64,000 nucleotides of DNA, taken from the NCBI GenBank assembly GCA_963713435.1, contig CAVQLU010000007.1:601960-665959 (forward strand). Reading direction: 5' to 3'. Below, in pieces: positions 6,777 to 31,975 of the stretch; within the stretch, counting starts at the first letter, position 1; every line of letters starts with the position of its first letter. The notes below the pieces were generated by a model. It saw only the letters and a program-made list of their open reading frames with translations, searched no databases and was not told the origin of the DNA. This DNA is from an uncultured Actinomycetes bacterium (GTDB taxonomy: Bacteria; Actinomycetota; Thermoleophilia; Gaiellales; JALYLC01). The translations under genes and the position numbers were made by a program.

Positions 6777-7488
6777 GCACAGTCGAGGGGCGCGTCGCGC
6801 TCATCACGGGAGCCAGCAGCGGCATCGGCGCCGCGACCGCCGCGTCGCTCGCCGCGCAGGGCGCGAAGGTCGCGCTGGCCTCGCGCCGCGGCAGCGACGA
6901 GGGCATCGCCGGAGCGCTCGCGCGCTCCTGCGACGTGCGCGACCCGCAGCAGATCGAGCAGCTGGTGGCCGAGACCGTCGAGCGCTTCGGAGGCCTCGAC
7001 ATCGTCGTCGCGAACGCCGGCGTCGGCGCCTACGGCGACTTCCTCGACATCTCGCCCGAGCACCTCGAGGAGATGATCGACGTCAACGTGAAGGGCCTGC
7101 ATGTACACGGTGCGGGCCTGCCTGCCGCACCTGCTTGCAGAGCTCTGCGGCCGATCTCGTCCTGGTCGCCTCGATCGCAGGGCAGCGCGCGCCCGAGGGC
7201 GAGTCCGTGTACGCGGCGTCCAAGTTCGCGCAGGTCGGGTTCATGCGCTCGCTCGACCACGAGCTGCACCGGCGCGGCGTGCGCTGCTCGACGATCGCCC
7301 CCGGCGGCGTCTGGACCGAGTTCGCCATGGGCGAGGGCCGCGGGCGCACGCCCGAGGACGCCGACCTGCCGGGGATGATGCGCGCCCAGGAGATCGCCGA
7401 CGCCGTCGTGCACGCCGTCACGCGGCCGCGCACGCATCGCGTGCTGGAGGCGACGATCCTGCCCATGAGCGACGACTCGATGAACTGA
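6773..7488 (+). pseudogene. Short-chain dehydrogenase/reductase with two frame switches (7095-7140).
   Basis: TGASSGIGAATA (TGxxxGxG), NAGV and YAASK (YxxxK). The GTG overlaps the amine oxidase stop (GTGA). Confidence 0.8.
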
Positions 7489-7502
7489 AGCGAGAGGAAT
7501 CG

Positions 7503-8838
7503 ATGGGACCGAAGGTCACGATCATCGGCGGGGGCAGCAGCAGCTTCGTGCCGGTGCTGATCCGCCGCCTCATGCAGTCCGAGGCGCTCGAGGCTGCGCG
7601 GGTCTCGCTCATGGACATCGACGAGGGCCGACTGGGCGTGATGCAGGCGCTCGCCGACAAGCTGATCGCGAGCGAAGGCAGCGACATCCGGGTCACGAGC
7701 ACGCTCGATCAGCGCGAGGCGCTCGTGGGCGCCGACTTCGTGATCGCGGCGATCGCCGAGGGCGGCATGGACGCCTGGGCCAACGACCTCGAGATCCCGG
7801 GCCGCTACGGCATCGTCATGCACGTCGGCGACTCGATCGGGCCGGGCGGGATCATGCGCGCCTTCCGCAACGCGCCGGCGCTGGCGCAGGTCGCCCGCAA
7901 CGCGGCCGAGGTCGCGCCCGAACGCCTACATCTTCAACTACACGAACCCGGCGCCGATCGAGGCGCTCGCCATGCGCACCGCCGCCCCGGGCGTGAAGTC
8001 GTTCGGGCTCTGCTCCTGCGCCGCGCACGCCAGCAGCCGCGAGTGGCTGGCGAGCCAGGCGGGCGTCAAGCCCGAGGAGATCGCGATGCCGCCCGTCGTC
8101 GCGGGGATCAACCACTGCGCGTCGATCCAGTCGCTGCGGCTGCTGGACGGCACCGACGCCATGCCGCGCGTGCTGGCGCGCGCGACCCAGCCGGTCGTCA
8201 AGTGGGCGCTCGAGACCTACGGCGTGCTGCCCTACTGCTGGACGCACTGGACGGAGTTCTTCCCGCAGATGCAGCGGCTCGAGGAGCCCTACTCGGGCAC
8301 GGCCCAGGGCGTGAAGATGCGCTACGGCATCAGACGCACGACATGGACTACGAGCGCGCCCGCGTGGCCGGGACTCGAGGGCCTCGCCGCGGCCTGGACG
8401 GCGCCCGGCGCCGACCCGATCACGCTCGCCGACCTGCCCGTCGGCGACGAGGACGAGGGCATCGAGGTGATCGACATCATCGAGTCCATCGTGACCAACG
8501 GCAACATCACGCGCGTCGTGATCGCGCCCAACAACGGCGCGATCCCGAACCTGCCCGACGCCGCGATCGTCGAGGTCAACGCGCAGATCAACGCCTACGG
8601 CGTGCGGCCGATCCACACCGGGCCGCTGCCCGAGGCGCTGGCGGCCCACCTGCGCCACTACGTCAGCTTCCAGCAGCACGTCGTCAAGGCCGCGCTCTCG
8701 GGCGATCGCAAGGCGGCGCTGCACGCGTTCCTGCTGGATCCGACGACGCAGTCGCACCTCGACCTCGACCAGACGCAGGCGCTGCTCGACGAGATGCTCG
8801 AGGCGAACAGGCAGTACCTGCCGCTCTTCGAGCGCTAG
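7503..8838 (+). pseudogene. GH4 family NAD/Mn-dependent glycosidase. There is a frame switch near 7920 and possibly a short excursion near 8335.
   Basis: MGPKVTIIGGGSSSFVP is an N-terminal Rossmann motif. FNYTNPAP, GLCSC and the C-terminal half (ORF 7972..8838) follow. GAGAGGAA lies upstream of the ATG. Confidence 0.75.
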
Positions 8839-8847
8839 CCTGGCGCG

Positions 8848-9620
8848 GTGGACGCGCCGGATGCATGGGACGTCAACGCCGCGTACTGGGACGCCTACAT
8901 GGGCGACGACGGCAACGAATGGCACCTGCGGCTGATCCGCCCGGGGTCGAGCGGCTGCTCGGGCCGGTCGCGGGCCAGCGCGTGCTCGACGTCGCCTGCG
9001 GCAACGGGCTCTACGCGCGGCGGCTGATCGAGCTGGGCGCCGCGCACGTCACGGCGACCGACGTCTCGGAGCCGATGCTGGAGCACGCGCGTCGCCGCAG
9101 CACAGGGGCCGGCGCGGGCATCGAGTACCGGCGCTGCGACGTCACCGACGGCGAGGCGCTGCTCGCGCTCGGCGAGGGAGCGTTCGACGCGGTCGTCTGC
9201 AACATGGCCCTGATGGACGTCCCCGAGATCGCCCCGCTGGCGGCGTCCCTGCCGTCGCTCCTGGCGGCGAACGGCCGTTTCGTCTTCTCGATCACGCACC
9301 CCTGCTTCAACCGGCTCGCGACGCGGTTCGTGGCAGAGGCCGAGTACGAGGCCGGCGTCCTCGTGTCCCGTCACGGTGTCTTCATGTCCCGCTACCTGAC
9401 GGCGGAGAGCGGCGAGGGCGTGGCGATCCACGGGCAGCCCGCCAACCAGCTCTACTTCGACCGGCCGCTCTCGCAGCTGCTCGCGCCCTTCTTCGCGGCC
9501 GGCCTGGCGCTCGACGGGATCGAGGAGCCCGCCTTCCCGGAGGGCGAGGAAGCGGACGGCCTCGGCTGGAGGACGACTCCCGAGCTGCCTCCGTTCCTCG
9601 TCGCGCGGCTGCGCCGATGA
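8848..9620 (+). pseudogene. Class I SAM-dependent methyltransferase with one frame switch near 8940, in a G-run.
   Basis: VLDVACGNGLYARRL is SAM motif I, and DAVVCNMALMD is also present. The N-terminus VDAPDAWDVNAAYWDAYMGDDGNEWH is in a different frame. Confidence 0.75.
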
Positions 9621-10414
9621 GCTCGCTCACGGTCTGCATCTCGGGCGCGCTCGGAGCGATCGGGCGCGAGCTCGTCCCGGCCGTCGTGGCGGCCGACGAT
9701 TTCTCGCTGCAGTCGGCGGTCGCGCGGCGCGAGCTCGGCCGCGACATCGGCGAGGCGCTCGGCGGCGCGGCGCTCGGCGTGCCGATCGAAGACGACATCG
9801 AGCGAGCGCTGGATCGCCGCCCGGACGTGCTGATCGACTACACGCACCCGGCCGTCGTGCGCCGCCACGTCGCACTCGCGCTGGAGCGGCGCGTGCCCGT
9901 CGTGATCGGCACCACCGGCCTGTTCGACGACGACTTCGCCGAGATCGACGCGGCCGCTCGCGCGGCAGGCGTGGGCGTGGCGACGGGCAACTTCTCGCTC
10001 ACCGCGGCCCTCCTGCAGCACCTCGGCCGCATCGCGGCGCGCCACGTCCCGCACTTCGAGGTGATCGAGCAGGGAGCAGCAGCGAAGCCGGACGTGCCGA
10101 GCGGCACGGCCCGCGAGCTCGCGGAGATCCTCGCCCGCGAACGCGCATCACAACCCGCAGCCGGCCCCGATCTGATCGGCCCGCCCGAGGCGCGAGGAGC
10201 GGAGATCGCGGGCGTCCCGGTCCACTCCCTCCGCCTCCCCGGAACGAGCCCGACCGTCGAAGTGATCTTCGGAGCCCCCGGCGAACGCCTGACAATCCGC
10301 CACGAAGAACAAAACGACCCCTCGATCTTCGTAATGGGAACCCTCCTGGCAGCCCGCCGAGTCCAGACGAAGTCAGGCCTGACAAGAGGCCTCGACTCCC
10401 TCCTCTTCGAGTAA
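9617..10414 (+). CDS. Dihydrodipicolinate reductase (DapB) family protein, non-canonical.
   Basis: This is an intact 265-aa ORF. It has the N-terminal GALGAIGRE Rossmann motif, VVIGTTG and KPDVPSGTAREL (the DapB substrate-binding block, but without the usual HH pair). The ATGA start overlaps the upstream stop. Confidence 0.75.
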   Translation: MSSLTVCISGALGAIGRELVPAVVAADDFSLQSAVARRELGRDIGEALGGAALGVPIEDDIERALDRRPDVLIDYTHPAVVRRHVALALERRVPVVIGTTGLFDDDFAEIDAAARAAGVGVATGNFSLTAALLQHLGRIAARHVPHFEVIEQGAAAKPDVPSGTARELAEILARERASQPAAGPDLIGPPEARGAEIAGVPVHSLRLPGTSPTVEVIFGAPGERLTIRHEEQNDPSIFVMGTLLAARRVQTKSGLTRGLDSLLFE

Positions 10415-10436
10415 CGACCACGCTTTGAGTGCACAA

Positions 10437-10683
10437 CCAGGGTCTGGCGCGTCCAGGCGGGGTCTGACCCCAGGTGTACGGGTCTGACCCCGCCTGTCCG
10501 TTTTGGCCTCTAGGCCAGTCGGCATGCCGGAAATGCCGCCCCGGCGGCCACGCTGACGAGCGACGCGCCTCGATCGCCAGAACGAGCCGAACGGCCTCAA
10601 ACGGCTTGGTTAAGCGAAACGGACACCTGGGGTCAGACCCGTACACCTGGGGTCAGGCCCGGACTGGACGCGCCAGACCCCAG
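10437..10683. repeat. Palindromic non-coding element: roughly 63-bp inverted arms, each an array of three GGGTC(W)GACCC units at 20-bp phasing.
   Basis: Unit cores start at 10440, 10460 and 10480 on the left arm. They start at 10630, 10650 and 10670 on the right arm. The arms are about 85-90 percent reverse-complementary. The element fills the gap between convergent genes (stops at 10414 and 10692). Confidence 0.85.
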
Positions 10684-10691
10684 ATGTTCGG

Positions 10692-12055
10692 TCAGGAGGG
10701 GTCGATGTTGTGGTTGTGGTGGAAGACGTTTTCCGGGTCGTAGCGGCGTTTGGCGGCCAGGAGGCGTTCGTAGTTCGGGCCGTAGGCTGCCTTGACGGCG
10801 TTCGAGTCCTGGTCGTCGCCGAGGTAGTTCAGCCAGCGCCGCTCGCGAGGTGGGGTCGCAGGGCTGCGTGCGCCTCTTGCGTCCACCTGATGTTCTCGTC
10901 GGTCGCGGCCGGATCCATCCAGACGGACGGGATCAGGAAGTTCCAGCCCTCCTCGCGGTGCGGCACGGCCGTTGCGCTCACGGGGATGCGCGTGACCGCT
11001 CCGTGGAAGTGCTCCAGCAGCATCACCGTCATCGGGGAGGGCACCGTCGCGAAGTGCTCGGCCATGGCGTCGATCAGCCCGTCCGTCAGGCCGCTCGTGA
11101 AGCTCGAGAGCCAGTAGTTGAGCGCTCCCTTCGGATAGCCGGCGTCGAGCAGCGTGTTCATCACCGGGTAGGGCATCGGGCCGACCTGCACCGCCGCCGG
11201 CGAGCCCCAGCCCACGAACGGCGCCAGATCGCGCTCCGCCTGCTCGGGTGTGCCCGTGTGGAAGACGACCATCGCGGCCAGCTTCATCCCCGAGCCGTCC
11301 GGCGCGTGAACCAGCCCGGCGAAGACGGTCAGGTCGTCCGAGGCGCCGGCGACTGCGTCGCGGTAGAAGCGGAGCATCTCGGGCCCGCGCGTCGATCGGA
11401 TGGGCGATCAGGCCGCCGGTGACCATGCCCACGGGCTGCAGGCGGTAGGTGAAGGTCGTCACCACGCCGAAATTGCCGCCCCCGCCGCAGAGTGCCCAGA
11501 ACAGATCGGGATCGGAAGCCTCGGTGACGTCGCGCACCTCGCCCTCCGCGTCGACGAGCTCGAAGGCCAGCAGGTTGTCGGCGGCCAGGCCGTACTTGGC
11601 CATCAGCCAGCCGAGACCCCCGCCGAGCGTCAGCCCGGCGATGCCGGTCGTCGAGATCGCGCCACCGGTGACCGCCATGCCGTGCGCGGCGGTCGCATCG
11701 TTGAGCTCGCCCCAGCTGAGACCGCCCTCCGCTCGCACCGTGCGGGCCGACGGCATCGACCTCGATGCCCTTCATCTCGGCCAGGTCGATCATCGACGCC
11801 GCCCTCGGCGACGGCGCGCCCGGCCACGTTGTGGCCGCCGCCGCGGACGGAGATGTCGAGCCCGGCGGCCCGCGCGAAGCGCACGCCGGCCGACACGTCG
11901 GCAGCGTTCCTGCAGCGGATGATCACCGCGGGCGAGCGGTCGACGAGGCCGTTGTGCACGCGGCGCGCGTCGTCGAATGCGTCGTCCCCGGGGCGCAACA
12001 CGCGCCCGGACACCTGGCCGGCCAGGTCGTCGAGGAGTGCGGGGTCAGGAGACAT
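10692..12055 (-). pseudogene. FAD-linked oxidase with BBE-like C-terminus, with about four frame switches.
   Basis: VRGGGHNVAG (FAD_binding_4), GIAGLTLGGGLGWL and NYERLLAAKRRYDPENVFHHNHNI (BBE tail). The pieces lie in ORFs 11630..12055, 11329..11793, 10692..11756 and 10829..11377. Confidence 0.8.
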
Positions 12056-12167
12056 GGCGGACGTACCTCCGACTCTGCCGCGCCGTTATCGACACGGCGG
12101 CTGCGAGTCTAAGGCGTGCGCGCAGGAGGCGCGCGAGGGTCGGGAGCGCGACGAGCGACGTCGCGGC

Positions 12168-13771
12168 TCAGCCGAGGCGGACGTCGAGCAGGAGCGGCTC
12201 CGAGCGCGAGCGCAGCCCCGGCAGCACCTCGCCGAGCGTCGCCAGAAGCTCGTCGTGCGTGACGATGCGGCGCGACGGGCAGCCCATGCCCGCCGCCACG
12301 GTCGAGAGGTCGAGCGACTCGAAACCCGGCCAGGCGCCGGGAGCGCCGTGCGCACTCGCGAGCTGATCCATGACGGCGTAGCGCCCGTTGCCCATGATCA
12401 CGAAGACCACGCCGACGCCGTAGCGCGCCGCGCTCCAGAGCGCCTGGATCGAGTACGTCGACGAGCCGTCGCCGAGCAGCGCGAGCACGGGCCGATCGGG
12501 CAGCGCCATGCGCAGGCCGATCGAGGCCGGCGAGGCCGAAGCCGAGGGCGCCGTTGGCGACCGCGACGAAGCCGAGCGGCGCGCGCGTCGCGATGCGGGC
12601 GAGGATCTCGGGCCGGGCAGACGGCGCCTCCTCGACGAGGATCGCGTCCTCGGGCAGGCCCGCCGCGAGCGCGGCGATGACGTGTTCCGTGCGCAGCGGC
12701 TCGCCGGCCCCGGGCGGCGCCGGTGCGAGCGGGCCGCTCGAGCGCCGGGACCGCTCCGCTGCGCTGCGGCAGACTCGGCCGCGAGCGCCGAGCAGACCGT
12801 CGCCGGCGCCGCCAGCAGCGCGAGGTCGCACTGGCTCCGCAACACGTCGTCCGGGTCGTCGCCCACGACGGCGACGCGCGTCGTCGCCTCGACCAGCGAG
12901 GCCCGGGTCGTACATGGTAGAGCCGGAAGGCGGGCGTGCCGATGGCGAGCACGAGGTCGTGGCCCGCGAACAGCGCGCGCAGTTCGCTCCGCCGCCACGG
13001 CAGGTGCCCGGCGAACAGCCGGTGGTTCTCCGGGAAGCCGTGGCGACTCGAGAACGTGTCCTGCCAGACCGGGCACTCGAGGCGCTCGGCCAGCGCCACG
13101 ACCGCCGCCCAGCCCTCGGGCGTATCGGCGCCGGCGCCGACGACGAGCGCCGGGGACGACGAGGCGCGCGAACAGCGCGGCGAGCTCCGCCACCGCCGAG
13201 TCGTCCACCGCGGAGGAGGTCAGCAGGCGCGCAGGCGCCGCCGGGCCGGCCCACTCGTCGCCGAGCGGCTCCTCCCAGTCCCCCATGGGGACGACGACGA
13301 GCGCCGGGCCGCGGCGCACGGTCGCCTCGTGCCAGGCGCGGGCGATGGCGCCGGGCACCTCGGAGGCGTGCGCGGGCAGCGTCGACCAGACCGGATAGTC
13401 GCCGGCCAGGCGCTCCAGGTTGCGCCCCGTGAGGAACGGGCCCGAGCGCGAGCTGGCGGCGATCCTGCTGACCGACGACGATCACGAGCGGCACCCGGTT
13501 GTCGCGCGCGCAGACGATCGCGTTGACGGCATTGCCGAGCCCGGCGGCGGTGTGCAGGTTGACGAAGGCCGGCCGCCCCGTGCCGAGCGCGTAGCCGCTG
13601 GCCATGCCGACGACGGCGCCCTCGTGCAGACCCGAGCACGAACTCGAGGTCGTCGGGGAAGTCGGTCAGGAACGGGATCTCGGTCGATCCCGGATTGCCG
13701 AACACGCGCGTCATGCCGAGCCGGCGCATGAGCGCGAACGTCTCGTCCCGGACCGTGGAAGGCGAGCTCAT
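12168..13771 (-). pseudogene. Thiamine-diphosphate enzyme, benzoylformate decarboxylase-like, with about six frame switches.
   Basis: It is collinear with MdlC-type proteins. Matching blocks are VFGNPGSTEIPFL, AFVNLHTAAGLGNA, and the TPP motif LLGDGSSTYSIQALWSAARYGVGVVFVIMGNGRY. Confidence 0.8.
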
Positions 13772-28531: not shown

Positions 28532-29455
28532 ATGCAGATGACCGAGGCCCCGGGGGCCGGCAGCGGAATGATCGGCCTCGGCAACATGGGCGGCCGGATC
28601 GCTCGCCGGATCAAGGCTGCCGGACTGCCGGTGCAGGGCTACGATCGCAGCCCCTCGCAGAGCGCAGCAGCCGGCATCGCAATCGCCGGCTCGATCGCGG
28701 AGCTCGCGGCCGACAGCGACGTCGTGTTCCTCTCGCTGCCCGACTCCGAAGCCGTCGAGGCGGTCGTGTTCGGCGAGGGCGGGCTGCTCGAGAGCGCCCG
28801 GCCGGGGATCATCGTGATCGACCTCAGCACCGCGGCGCCGAGCTCGACCGTGAAGATCCACGCGGCCCTGGCCGAGCGCGGCGTGGACTTCGTCGACGCC
28901 GGCATCTCGGGCGGCGCCGCCGCGGCCGAGCAGGGCACACTCGCGCTCATGGCCGGGGGCTCGCAGCGGGCGCTCGCCGCGGCTGCGCCGCTGCTCGCGA
29001 CCTTCAGCGCCCACGTCTACCACATGGGCGAATCCGGCTCGGGGCACGTCGCCAAGCTGCTCAACAACTTCCTCAACGCGATCAGTCTGGCCGCGACGGC
29101 CGAGGTGATGGTCGCGGCGAAGCAGGCCGATCTCGACCTCGCGCAGTTCCTCGACGTCGTCAACCACTCGAGCGGCGTCAACTTCGCGACGCTCAACCGC
29201 TTTCCGAGGATCATCGAGGGCGACTACCTGGAAGGCGGCCTGACGAGCGCACTGATGGCCAAGGACGTGCGGCTCTACCTCGAGTACCTTCAGCAGGCCG
29301 GAGTCACGAGCTTCACCGGCCCCGCCTGTCTCGGAGCGTTCAATCTCGCCGGCGCACTCGGCTACGGCGATCAGATCAGCAACCGCGTGGTCGACGCGAT
29401 CGGCGATGTCGCCGGCGGCGTCCGCGTCCAGCAGAACCGGAGGACGGAATCGTGA
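28532..29455 (+). CDS. NAD(P)-dependent 3-hydroxyisobutyrate dehydrogenase family oxidoreductase.
   Basis: GMIGLGNMGGRIA is the Rossmann motif. DAGISGG and GSGHVAKLLNN are also present. The real start lies inside track ORF 28322..29455. Confidence 0.8.
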   Translation: MQMTEAPGAGSGMIGLGNMGGRIARRIKAAGLPVQGYDRSPSQSAAAGIAIAGSIAELAADSDVVFLSLPDSEAVEAVVFGEGGLLESARPGIIVIDLSTAAPSSTVKIHAALAERGVDFVDAGISGGAAAAEQGTLALMAGGSQRALAAAAPLLATFSAHVYHMGESGSGHVAKLLNNFLNAISLAATAEVMVAAKQADLDLAQFLDVVNHSSGVNFATLNRFPRIIEGDYLEGGLTSALMAKDVRLYLEYLQQAGVTSFTGPACLGAFNLAGALGYGDQISNRVVDAIGDVAGGVRVQQNRRTES

Positions 29456-29847
29456 GAATCGCCAAGGCCGGACGCATCGGCAAGCCGACCGAAGAGCGCG
29501 GACCGACGTTCACGGGCCAGGTCTGGGCCGACCCCGTGCTGGGCGGCGAGGACGGGATCATGGTCGCCAACGTGTTCTTCGAGCCCGGGTCGCGCACCCA
29601 CTGGCACACGCACGAGACGGCGCAGGTGCTGCACGTGCTCGCCGGCGAGGGCCGGTTGCAGTCGCGCGACGGGACGGGCGGGAAGCTCCAGGCCGGCGAT
29701 GTCGCGCACATCCCGGCGGGCGAGGAGCACTGGCACGGCGCCGCGCCCGGCAGCTATCTCCTGCACCTGGCCGTCTCGATCGGCTCGGTCGACTGGCTCG
29801 ATCCGGTGAGCGACGCCGACTACGCGAGCGCGACCGCCTCCGGCTAA
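29452..29847 (+). CDS. Cupin domain protein.
   Basis: This 131-aa ORF carries THWHTHETAQVLHVLAGEG...HIPAGEEHWHG (cupin motifs 1 and 2). Its start overlaps the upstream stop. Confidence 0.75.
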   Translation: MRIAKAGRIGKPTEERGPTFTGQVWADPVLGGEDGIMVANVFFEPGSRTHWHTHETAQVLHVLAGEGRLQSRDGTGGKLQAGDVAHIPAGEEHWHGAAPGSYLLHLAVSIGSVDWLDPVSDADYASATASG

Positions 29848-29887
29848 GTCGCCCGGCAGGGCGGCGAGGACCGCTGCCCGGTGCTTT

Positions 29888-30152
29888 CCGTGCACGCACG
29901 GGGTCTGGCCCGCAACGTGCGGGTCTGACCCCGAGCGTGCGGACCTGGCACCGACCCGTGCACGCGGCCGCAACCCCACTGGTCATGCGGGAAACCAGCG
30001 ACGCGGAACCGTGCGGAACTCCGTGCGGCGGTGGGCCTGAAGCGGCGCCAGGGCCGCAAAGCCCGATGGATAGGGCGATGCACGCACGGGGTCAGGTCCG
30101 CACGCACGGGGTCAGACCCGCAACGTGCGGGCCAGACCCCGAGCGTGCGGAC
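29888..30152. repeat. Second member of the GGGTC(W)GACCC phased-palindrome element family.
   Basis: Unit cores start at 29901, 29921 and (degenerate) 29941 on the left. They start at 30089, 30109 and 30129 on the right. The arms are related both as inverted and as roughly 46-bp direct repeats (29901-29946 vs 30109-30152). The element fills the convergent gap between stops at 29847 and 30153. Confidence 0.85.
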
Positions 30153-31127
30153 CTACCCGAGGGCGGTGGAGTCCGGTTCGTCGTCCTGCAGGGCGGCGAG
30201 GATGCCGTCGATCAGCGCTCGAGTGAGCATGAGCGACAGGAACTCCTCGATCCTCGGGACCCAGACCTCACGCTCCCCGGCCGGCGTGTCCGGCGCGAGC
30301 CAGGCCGCGATCCCCATCTCGCCGATGTGGCCGACCTGGGCAATCGCCATGGAGAAGTCGCCGCGCCGCGACACGCGGCCGGGACCGCCCGCCTCGACGT
30401 AGCTGCGGTACAGCGCGCGCGTGCGCGCCGCGTCATCCGCACCGAACTCGAACAAGGCGACCGCCAGCTCCTGGCTCCGGTCGGCCAGACCGCTGTTGTC
30501 CCAGTCGATCACGCACAGCCCGCCACCCGGCGTCGGCAGGACGTTGTCGGCCCACAGGTCGCGATGACAGGTCGCGAGGTCGCGGGGTGGCTCGAGCAAG
30601 CCCTCCAGCGCGATCAGCTCCTCGCAGCGAGCGGCCAGCATCGCCGCGCACGGCCCGCTCGCGGCGTCCATCGCATCGGCAAGCTCACGCCAACGCGTAG
30701 CGCCGACGGGATCCGTGTACCAGGGATCGAGGGGCATCGTCCCGGCGAAGCCGAGCAGGTGGATTGCGGCGAGAAGACGACCGACCGCCGCAGGATCGAC
30801 AAGGGGATCCGCCTTTCCGAGCTCGACCCACTCGTAGACGCGCACAGCGTCGCCGGCGCAGGCGAGCTGGATTTCCCCGTCCAGCGTCCGAACGACGCGA
30901 GGCGTCGGGATGCCGGCCAGCGTCGCTGCCTCCTGGATCGCGGCGGCCTCCACGGCCTCGCGTTCATCGAGCGGATCGAACGTCTCCTTGACGGCCCAAT
31001 CGCCCCGCTCCGTCTGCAGCCGCCACACCTGACCGACGACGCCGCGCGCCACCGGGCCGGTCAGCGAGAGTGCCTCGCCGAGGCCGTAGGCCGCTGCGAT
31101 CGCGTCCTGGTCGGCGGCCCGGAGCAC
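30153..31127 (-). CDS. Phosphotransferase (APH/choline-kinase-like) family protein.
   Basis: CHRDLWADNVL (HxDxxxxN) and VIDWDNSG are present. I place the GTG start at 31127, just after the upstream stop. The track ORF 30153..31589 is over-extended. Confidence 0.7.
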   Translation of the reverse strand: MLRAADQDAIAAAYGLGEALSLTGPVARGVVGQVWRLQTERGDWAVKETFDPLDEREAVEAAAIQEAATLAGIPTPRVVRTLDGEIQLACAGDAVRVYEWVELGKADPLVDPAAVGRLLAAIHLLGFAGTMPLDPWYTDPVGATRWRELADAMDAASGPCAAMLAARCEELIALEGLLEPPRDLATCHRDLWADNVLPTPGGGLCVIDWDNSGLADRSQELAVALFEFGADDAARTRALYRSYVEAGGPGRVSRRGDFSMAIAQVGHIGEMGIAAWLAPDTPAGEREVWVPRIEEFLSLMLTRALIDGILAALQDDEPDSTALG

Positions 31128-31138
31128 GACGCGGCGCC

Positions 31139-31975
31139 CTAGCCGAGCAGCGCTTCGGCCAGGGCCGTCCAGCCCCGGCGCGGAATTCCGTCCTCGCCCG
31201 TGACCTGCAGGACGACGTGATCGGCGCCTGCGCTGAAATGCGCCCGCGCAACGCCCGCGAGCTCCTCGGCGGTGCCGTGTGGCACTACGGCATCGATCAA
31301 GCGGTCGGAGCCTCCGTCGGCGATGTCGGTCTCGCTGAAGCCGAAGCGCAGCAGGTTGCTCGTGTAATTCGTCAGCCCGAGATAGATGCTTGCGAACTCG
31401 CGCGCGGCGACTCTCGCCCGCGCGCTGTCGCTGTCGACCACGACGGCGACCTCCGGAGCGACCAGCGGGCCGGGCCCGAGCTGCTCTCGCGCGGCTTTCG
31501 TGTGCTCGACCGGGACGAAGTACGGGATCGTGCCGAGCGAGCGCTCGGCGCTCAGCGCCAGCATCTTCGGCGCCAGCGCCGCGATGCACCGGCGCTCGGG
31601 TGGAATCGGCACGTCGGCCCCATCGAGGCCGTCGAGGAACGTCCGCATGGCGGTGAGCGGCCTCGTGTAGTCGCTCGTCGCCTCGGGATGGCCGGTTCCG
31701 ATGCCCACGAGCAGGCGTCCCGGGAAGTCCCGCTCGAGCACCGCGTACTCGGCCGCGAGCTCGGCGGGGTCATAGGCCCAGATGTTCACGATGCTCGTCG
31801 CGATCACGAGCTTCTCGGTCGCCTCGAGCAGCGGCCGCACGCTCGGCAGTCGCGGCGAGCCTCCCAGCCAGAACGTCGTGTAGCCGAGGTCTGCGACGAG
31901 GCTCGCGGCCTCCCCGGCATTGCTCTCGCCGATGCGGCGCCAGGTCGTCCAGATGCCGAGCTTCCCCAGTTCCAT
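31139..31975 (-). CDS. LLM-class F420-dependent oxidoreductase.
   Basis: This is an intact 278-aa ORF. The N-terminus MELGKLGIWT and the luciferase-like TIM-barrel pattern are typical of this class. Confidence 0.7.
   Translation of the reverse strand: MELGKLGIWTTWRRIGESNAGEAASLVADLGYTTFWLGGSPRLPSVRPLLEATEKLVIATSIVNIWAYDPAELAAEYAVLERDFPGRLLVGIGTGHPEATSDYTRPLTAMRTFLDGLDGADVPIPPERRCIAALAPKMLALSAERSLGTIPYFVPVEHTKAAREQLGPGPLVAPEVAVVVDSDSARARVAAREFASIYLGLTNYTSNLLRFGFSETDIADGGSDRLIDAVVPHGTAEELAGVARAHFSAGADHVVLQVTGEDGIPRRGWTALAEALLG

Follow-up and report, generated by a model that had tools for sequence, protein, structure and literature searches.

A probable REPIN-type repeat family of 20-bp-phased palindromes, associated with RAYT-family transposases, in Gaiellales

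What is the origin of a long, highly ordered inverted repeat that fills the gap between two convergent genes? The question is raised by a 64,000-nucleotide stretch of contig CAVQLU010000007.1 (assembly GCA_963713435.1, from an uncultured member of the Gaiellales), referred to here as the window, in which the intergenic gap between dapB and a gene for a BBE-type oxidase is occupied by an element that we call copy A. An initial annotation of the window likened this structure to repeats of the REP (repetitive extragenic palindromic) or BIME (bacterial interspersed mosaic element) type. The analysis described here bears out that likeness, by a second copy within the window, by at least 64 copies in relatives, and by a gene of the RAYT (REP-associated tyrosine transposase) family that is flanked by the same arms. 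We therefore consider it very probable that copy A belongs to a multi-copy family of extragenic, non-autonomous repeats in Gaiellales, to be classed with REPINs and BIMEs or with TIRtrons.

Architecture of the elements in the window

Copy A consists of two inverted arms and a centre, as follows.

10426–10694, family orientation minus: copy A, whole element, 269 bp, two inverted arms plus centre
10426–10503, no strand: arm 1 of copy A, with units at 10440 (degenerate, GGGTCTGGCGC), 10460 and 10480 (both exact, GGGTCTGACCC)
10617–10694, no strand: arm 2 of copy A, with units at 10630 (exact), 10650 (one mismatch) and 10670 (degenerate, GCGCCAGACCC)
10504–10616, minus strand: centre of copy A, 113 nt, non-coding, with the directional motifs of the family

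An inverted-repeat search gave arms of 78 nt each, 85% complementary and 113 nt apart. Each unit is an 11-nt palindrome, GGGTC(W)GACCC, followed by a 9-nt spacer, which accounts for the 20-bp phase; all six units of copy A, three per arm, keep to this register, and the spacers CAGGTGTAC and GTACACCTG are mirror images. The phased palindromes in inverted arms and the mirrored 9-nt spacers described in the initial annotation were thus confirmed. Its extent of 10437–10683 is too short, since the arms reach approximately 10 nt further out on either side. The centre had been described as unique and free of any credible open reading frame (ORF). The second part of this description stands, as our self-trained codon log-odds caller, validated on Pfam-supported genes, gave no coding signal in the centre of copy A; the first does not, because the centre carries directional motifs conserved across the family. 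These are GGCATGCCGGAAA at 10521–10533, the reverse complement of TTCCGCATGCC, and GGCTTGGTTAAGCG at 10603–10616, the reverse complement of CGCTCAACCA, and together they place copy A in the minus orientation within the family.

The motif GGGTCWGACCC, allowing at most one mismatch, has 8 matches in the 64 kb, compared with 1.42 ± 1.16 in shuffled sequences (maximum 4; none of 100 shuffles reached 8). All eight are confined to two clusters, and a chance origin of these clusters is excluded. One cluster is copy A, and the other is a second element, copy B.

29892–30148, family orientation minus: copy B, whole element, second motif cluster of the window
29892–29953 and 30087–30148: arms of copy B, 62 nt, 89% complementary

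The units of copy B start at 29901, 29921 and 29941 (degenerate) in one arm and at 30089, 30109 and 30129 in the other, and its centre holds GGTCATGCGGGAAA at 29981–29994. The two copies have their palindromes and architecture in common and differ in spacers and centre: the spacers of copy B are of the GCAACGTGC type, and therefore belong to a different subfamily from those of copy A.

A repeat family in related genomes

Related sequences were sought with the pattern GGGTCTGGCNC-N9-GGGYCTGACCCC, which all four arms in the window satisfy, using one genome per species. The pattern was found at at least 79 loci (numbered below with the prefix L), of which 76 of those listed come from metagenome-assembled genomes (MAGs) labelled Gaiellales, Actinomycetes or Actinomycetota; at many of the listed loci a plus and a minus match lie 206–233 bp apart. 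Among the matches listed, the related loci, 616 kb in total, contain at least 64 full-size copies, so that the clusters of GGGTCWGACCC proposed by the initial annotation as a genome-wide search do recur, once more in the window and many times in its relatives. None of the 64 full-size copies overlaps a called gene; all are extragenic. The element is 240–265 bp in size across the family, and its arms, which have three units in the window copies, have three to five elsewhere. In the listed loci the unit-to-unit spacing is exactly 20 bp in at least 116 cases, and the arm-to-arm spacing is 188–193 bp. A search of viral contigs with the family pattern gave no matches, and hence no link to phage.

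We aligned 58 full-length elements, oriented by their centres. The outer unit has the consensus GGGGTCTGGCyC, the middle unit GGGTCTGACCCC is nearly invariant, and the inner unit, GGAsCCTGrCmCC, is degenerate; a GGGGTCAG / GGGGTCTG unit is found in every arm. The centre has a constant layout, with CGCTCAACCA adjoining one arm, approximately 80 variable nucleotides, and TTCCGCATGCCTA..GG.TTTG.GG adjoining the other arm. These conserved motifs are asymmetric, and the element is therefore directional, with both window copies in the minus orientation. The palindrome core is much better conserved than the spacers, which fall into subfamilies: a CGCCAGGTG type, a GCAACGTGC type, and the type of window copy A and L080, GCGCGkCCAGGCG. 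The spacers of a subfamily change jointly on both arms.

Predicted hairpins

The spacer on one side of the middle unit is the reverse complement of that on the other, and each arm can therefore form an imperfect REP-like hairpin of approximately 33 nt, composed of a lower stem, an internal mismatch, an upper stem of GGGT/ACCC and a CWG loop. In the alignment 86% of the cells of the arm hairpins are paired, compared with 67% in shuffles and 24–50% in controls slid along the sequence, and the covariation score is 0.42 against 0.15 in shuffles, none of 500 of which reached 0.42. Folded as DNA, the local 33-nt hairpins of copy B have energies of −10.3 and −12.0 kcal/mol (z = −2.7 and −3.1). A hairpin of this kind is the anatomy of a REP, and two of them in inverted orientation are that of a REPIN.

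The two arms together can form a much longer structure. The consensus long hairpin has 39 pairs, of which 17 show compensatory double-sided changes, and copy A as a whole is predicted to fold with −187 kcal/mol on the plus strand and −185 kcal/mol on the minus strand (z = −12.1 and −9.6). No Rfam family reached its gathering score in the element region, the matches being to generic hairpins of miRNA models, the best of them MIR918 with 35 bits against the 268 needed.

A RAYT-family transposase between the same arms

At L061 the arms are 909 bp apart and enclose an ORF of 252 amino acids. This ORF matches Pfam Y1_Tnp (E = 7.9e-9), and its sole sequence match in the PDB is 4ER8, E. coli TnpA_REP (E = 4e-5), in an alignment that places its HSH on H59-M60-H61 and its tyrosine on the catalytic Y115. 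The residues H60, H62, Y119 and N123 are invariant in 31 homologues. The AlphaFold2 model (pLDDT 88) agrees: its best fold match in the PDB is again 4ER8 (E = 2.7e-7, TM 0.71), and ranks 2–18 of the fold search are nearly all ISDra2, IS608 and IS200 transposases. A protein search returned 1,864 homologues, with source names that include "REP element-mobilizing transposase RayT" and "REP-associated tyrosine transposase [Gaiellales bacterium]".

RAYT-family genes bracketed by phased arms were found at L061, L022, L055 (partial), L080–82, L083, L084 and L089. These eight RAYT loci come from at least six related assemblies, and the same phased arms are present at every locus examined; the enzymes are HUH/Y1 transposases of approximately 230–250 amino acids. 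The genes at L022 and L055, found by tblastn over all loci, abut arms and share a neighbouring gene. At L080–82, L084 and L089 the RAYT gene lies between mreB and argG, in the case of L080–82 on a 1.28-Mb contig that also encodes a DapB with 79% identity. The cassette of L089 is inverted relative to mreB and argG when compared with L080 and L084 (L080:1767–5844 against L089:1–3364), which is the expected product of recombination between inverted arms. Assembly GCA_035696365.1 contains two different RAYTs (L061 and L089). The core palindrome is the same at both, but each RAYT is flanked by a spacer subfamily of its own, which would readily explain why the window contains two subfamilies, A and B. 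Given that a RAYT gene stands between these repeats in related genomes, we regard a passive mobile element of a known type as the most likely identity of copy A, rather than a purpose-built terminator.

We also considered whether the centre motif ...GATGCCTA... could be a vestige of a RAYT start codon (ATGCCTAGA in L022), in which case the element would be an internal-deletion derivative of a RAYT cassette. This was rejected as unsupported: the RAYTs at L080 and L084 start otherwise, and the 5′ leaders of RAYTs share nothing else with the centres.

The Gaiellales RAYTs carry approximately 80 additional C-terminal residues, with three to four predicted helices, and this region gives weak matches to HTH_23- and HTH_38-like helix-turn-helix (HTH) domains; the AlphaFold2 model has an extra helical C-terminal domain at residues 196–240. 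This addition bears on a different view of the arms, already raised in the initial annotation, in which they are a putative array of duplex-DNA sites for a dimeric protein (the HTH of the RAYT, or a nucleoid or regulatory protein of the host) lined up on a single side of the helix. Each 11-bp unit is a perfect dyad, the spacing of exactly 20 bp amounts to two helical turns, and the good conservation of the core relative to the spacers is what such sites would display, as is the occurrence of the same phased core with different spacers in unrelated phyla (see below). On the other side, the HTH matches fall under the Pfam cutoffs, and the spacers covary so as to keep the hairpins, a feature needed by a single-stranded substrate and not by duplex binding. 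We judge this view improbable as an explanation of the element, and it is in any case compatible with a RAYT-associated repeat rather than exclusive of it. The two-turn phasing may in addition serve the extra HTH domain in binding duplex DNA cooperatively.

Turnover and persistence of the elements

In the MAG MFD05942 there are pairs of copies that lie on separate contigs, between dissimilar flanks, and whose identity across arms and centre is 99.2%, 97.5% and 97.1%; this implies that the whole unit of approximately 240 bp was copied recently. One orthologous pair of sites is filled at L018 and empty at L062, which has a 28-bp terminator-like hairpin alone; a second pair, from two species, has a full element at L025 and a single REP-like hairpin at L030.

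The size of 240–265 bp, the long inverted arms, the extragenic location in many copies, the near-identical copies and the empty site would all suit a conventional miniature inverted-repeat transposable element (MITE), that is, an internally deleted insertion sequence of a DDE transposase with long terminal inverted repeats. We nevertheless think this very unlikely. Neither the borders of the 58 aligned copies nor the orthologous copies nor the filled and empty pair show a target-site duplication, and the only gene found between such arms encodes a Y1/HUH transposase. Moreover, within a genome the arms are 91–92% identical and the variable centre only 44–57%, a figure that approaches that of unrelated sequence; neutral decay of a dead MITE would not leave the arms so much better conserved than the centre.

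The site of copy A gives a view of slower change. The element is present in orthologous position at L085:3299–3548 and L086:3140–3407, corresponding to 10415–10691 of the window, and no empty version of the dapB–BBE site was found: L085 and L086 are both filled, and the more distant L087 and L088 lack synteny. Among these orthologues the spacers differ on both arms, for example as GTAC / GGAC-GTCC / GGCG-CGCC. The copy at L085 is of the CGCCAGGTG / GGAGGCTGGCACC type, and those of the window and L086 are of the GCGCGkCCAGGCG type. Such a switch of subfamily within one gap points to replacement, conversion or re-insertion at a fixed site rather than to simple point divergence.

Tandem duplications of a half-unit plus spacer, 14–16 nt long, occur at the outer ends of the elements, in 9 of 58 on the left and 7 of 58 on the right (for example GCAAGATCGGGGTCT twice and AGACCCCAACTGGCG twice; L027, L051 and L056 on the left, L045, L052 and L063 on the right). 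Their number downstream of the RAYT gene differs among L080, L081 and L082, three near-identical strains with an identical RAYT. The duplications point to breaks, or to slippage, in the middle of the outermost palindrome. Separately, L063:319–616 has two matches of left-arm type on the same strand, at 319+ and 376+ and hence separated by 57 bp, ahead of a full element; either part of an arm was duplicated there, or one insertion is nested in, or in tandem with, another.

Gene context and the question of termination

Both window copies lie between convergent genes and take up the whole gap. The flanking genes, all outside the elements, are as follows.

9617–10414, plus strand: DapB, 4-hydroxy-tetrahydrodipicolinate reductase (Pfam), left border of the gap of copy A
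10692–11756, minus strand: FAD-binding/BBE oxidase (Pfam), on the other side of copy A
29452–29847, plus strand: cupin, flanking copy B
30153–31589, minus strand: APH-family kinase, flanking copy B

The stops of the genes beside copy A at 10414 and 10692, as given in the initial annotation, hold good, and both ORFs are Pfam-supported. The DapB of the window is 93–94% identical to proteins on Gaiellales-type contigs, which assigns the window to this lineage.

This arrangement prompts the suggestion, also made in the initial annotation, that the element is a bidirectional terminator, or more generally a hairpin selected by the host for termination or for stabilising mRNA, in which the convergent transcripts fold within the arms and are stopped or protected. 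The extremely favourable predicted RNA fold of copy A on both strands is in its favour, and classical REPs are reported to affect termination and mRNA stability (PMC3733652). The wider family gives a more mixed picture. The context could be classified for 52 copies: the genes on either side are convergent at 17, tandem at 20 and divergent at 15, where the background of 510 has 84, 346 and 80, respectively. Convergent contexts are thus approximately two-fold enriched (17/52 against 84/510), but the expected bias to convergent 3′ ends is not exclusive, because 35 of the 52 copies are tandem or divergent. The enrichment of the family follows free intergenic space in general and not 3′ ends in particular. 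The orientation of the element relative to co-directional flanking genes (13 opposite, 6 same) shows no significant preference.

A promoter and terminator scan found neither a terminator-like U-tract nor a promoter inside copy A, its lone terminator match (10688–10705) being one that covers the oxidase stop codon at the outward end of arm 2. Furthermore, the cupin gene beside copy B already has a terminator-like hairpin of its own at 29852–29881 (CCCGGCAG...CTGCCCGG followed by TGCTTTCC), between its stop and the element. The mixed contexts, the lack of a U-tract and this separate hairpin leave a dedicated terminator role unsupported; it would also leave unexplained the association with RAYT genes, the strict 20-bp phasing and the conserved directional centre. 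We therefore consider a host-selected terminator or stabilising hairpin unlikely as the reason for the element, and at best a local side effect on the two convergent transcripts is possible.

The empty site at L062 likewise has a small hairpin, CTGCG-TTTT-CGCAG, and the elements may insert beside 3′ hairpins that are already there.

Several ORFs of the window, at 7101–9620, 10692–11756, 12109–13605 and 30153–31589, have mixed third-position GC and are each split across frames by the codon model; the oxidase ORF has an apparent frameshift near 10829–10847, and the ORF at 7101–9620 is a fusion of GH4 and methyltransferase domains, while the relative L085 has a separate, intact GH4 gene. These broken ORFs are likely to be indel errors of a long-read assembly, or pseudogenes.

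Related palindromes and arrays

Many of the elements of MFD05942 are abutted at one or both ends by a perfect 35-bp palindrome, GGCCAAGTGGCACTCGCnGCGAGTGCCACTTGGCC, which is unrelated to the units (for example at L044:1452–1500 and 1745–1790), and a variant, CAAATGGCAC...GTGCCATTTGG, is found in AFD bin29 (for example at L018:2990–3030). There are 73 half-sites in 25 loci, and none beside the window copies. This palindrome may move together with the elements as a module, mark a target that they prefer, or represent a second REP family.

The phased palindrome also occurs outside Gaiellales. In a Bacteroidaceae MAG, GGGG(T/C)CAGACCC is repeated directly at least four times, always with the spacer TGCACACC, in an array (L016:7929–8000) that extends to the end of the fetched locus; the Woeseiaceae chromosome OZ245060.1 has five phased units, one of them framed by GTAG...CTAC; and an unclassified MAG has an irregular cluster of GGGGCCAGACCC. 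The latter two were among the loci examined with the first as L077:4445–4535 and L048:3610–3810, and no RAYT gene was found within the 8-kb loci of the three arrays.

Comparison with known systems

The closest parallel is the REPIN–RAYT system, as in P. fluorescens SBW25 and, in the form of REP/BIME and TnpA_REP (4ER8), in E. coli. In both systems the repeats are short imperfect palindromes, extragenic and in many copies, whose inverted pairs can fold into a hairpin; a gene for an HUH/Y1 transposase lies between such repeats, at a conserved chromosomal position (mreB–argG in L080, L084 and L089); and a genome may have several subfamilies, each tied to its own RAYT (L061 and L089). The alternation of spacer orientation within a Gaiellales arm also resembles the alternating Y and Z REP types of E. 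coli BIMEs, which are connected by defined linker motifs, some of them with an IHF site. In contrast, the Gaiellales arm has three to five units phased at 20 bp where a REPIN arm is a single REP, and the transposase is approximately 240 residues long with a C-terminal HTH where E. coli TnpA_REP has 165.

A second parallel is provided by TIRtrons, whose TIRYT genes are RAYT-like and flanked by terminal inverted repeats (TIRs) in place of GTAG-tagged REPs (Di Nocera et al. 2013, PMC3733652). In the part of that survey available to us, some TIRs of TIRYTs share GGGGWSAS, copies of TIRs are dispersed as dimers or clusters, and the TIRYT transposases are longer than classical RAYTs; TIRs are described there mainly at transposase genes, with "moderately abundant" families in few genomes. 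The Gaiellales family resembles TIRtrons in having a RAYT-like gene flanked by TIRs that are also dispersed as a repeat family, and GGGGTCAG fits GGGGWSAS exactly, a match of consensus from which a TIR-type identity may be proposed. A 20-bp-phased arm of several units and a conserved directional centre are not described in that part of PMC3733652, nor are Actinobacteria among the phyla it names, the word being absent from its text and from that of a second survey. We found no literature that links RAYT, REPIN and Actinobacteria together.

The insertion sequences of the IS200/IS605 group are more distant. The TnpA proteins of IS608 and ISDra2 have the same Y1 HUH fold, and these elements likewise make no target duplication and have sub-terminal imperfect hairpins that are recognised as single-stranded DNA. 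IS200/IS605 elements have distinct hairpins at their left and right ends, and the symmetric inverted arrays of the Gaiellales elements are unlike them; the Gaiellales transposase is closest to TnpA_REP in both sequence and fold, and its gene, instead of being present in multiple copies, occupies syntenic positions among housekeeping genes. Long-TIR bacterial MITEs, such as Correia elements, are similar in size class, inverted ends, intergenic location and hairpin-forming transcripts, and differ in that the Gaiellales element lacks a target-site duplication and a DDE partner and has arms made of phased palindromes. CRISPR-like and iteron readings were set aside, as the units are palindromic, the arrays have three to five units, and the arms are inverted.

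Discussion

The findings suggest the following model for the origin of copies A and B. A RAYT-family enzyme, encoded elsewhere in the genome and acting in trans, would recognise the arm hairpins in single-stranded DNA and would cut and rejoin near the outer units, so that the 240–265-nt unit could be copied or moved into other intergenic sites. Selection or homogenisation tied to the enzyme would hold the arms constant while the centre drifts, and the two arms together would be able to form one long hairpin around the directional centre of approximately 110 nt. The trans action, the recognition of single-stranded hairpins and the cleavage near the outer units are proposed by analogy with TnpA_REP and the IS200/IS605 enzymes (PMC3479197). 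We infer that the enzyme acts catalytically on these repeats by a single-stranded route, with cleavage at this position, and that it is present in the window's own genome.

Several observations weigh against a REPIN- or TIRtron-type identity. The initial annotation had proposed a search for a RAYT or TnpA_REP-like partner; such a gene was found between the same arms in related genomes, while tblastn found none within the 64-kb window. For copy A the predicted local hairpins are weak, at −5 kcal/mol and with z about 0. L085 and L086, at 93–94% DapB identity, carry the element at the same dapB–BBE site, from which it follows that mobility is slow, and the conserved arms could reflect a host function instead. 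With its directional centre of approximately 110 nt, the element has two to three times the length of classical REPINs; the REPINs of SBW25, as Bertels and Rainey reportedly described in 2011, are roughly 100 bp or less. Unlike classical REPs, the Gaiellales repeats have no 5′ GTAG tag: the alignment shows no conserved GTAG beside the arm hairpins, where the flanks are subfamily-specific spacers, and CTAC is restricted to the centre of one subfamily. The L061 ORF scores 72.5 bits against NCBIfam REP_Tyr_transpos (NF047646), just under the equivalog cutoff of 80. The missing tag and the score below the cutoff mark the family as a divergent relative and not as a canonical REP.

Automated annotation already names the RAYT gene, and the gene family is therefore not new. 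What is new is the repeat grammar and the host lineage: the unusual features are the two-turn phasing, the several units per arm, the directional centre, the C-terminal HTH of the transposase, and an actinobacterial host lineage in which such a system has not been described. On a more speculative note, the two-turn-phased motif of 11–12 nt, GGGG(T/C)C(W)G(A/G)CCCC, might be a recognition module shared across phyla, serving a distinct RAYT-like clade that reads its repeats partly as duplex DNA through the C-terminal HTH. We hold this to be a rather doubtful proposal, though a consequential one: if true, it would be a mechanistically different coupling of a domesticated Y1 transposase to a population of repeats, and the first persistent, vertically inherited partnership of REPIN type described in Actinomycetota.

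As the elements fill intergenic gaps and form very stable hairpins, they can mislead predictions of terminators, small RNAs and ORFs, and they should be masked or annotated in Gaiellales MAGs. REPIN–RAYT is the best-studied case of a population of non-autonomous elements kept over the long term by a single-copy, vertically inherited transposase, and to our knowledge it has been characterised almost entirely in Proteobacteria. The Gaiellales, a deep-branching and largely uncultured order of soil actinobacteria, would follow the same logic with a different repeat grammar, of phased short dyads, a directional centre and an HTH-bearing enzyme. With arms conserved at approximately 91% beside diverged centres, spacer changes on both arms at orthologous sites, and the pairing of distinct subfamilies with distinct RAYTs within one genome, the family is a candidate for studying how such populations persist.

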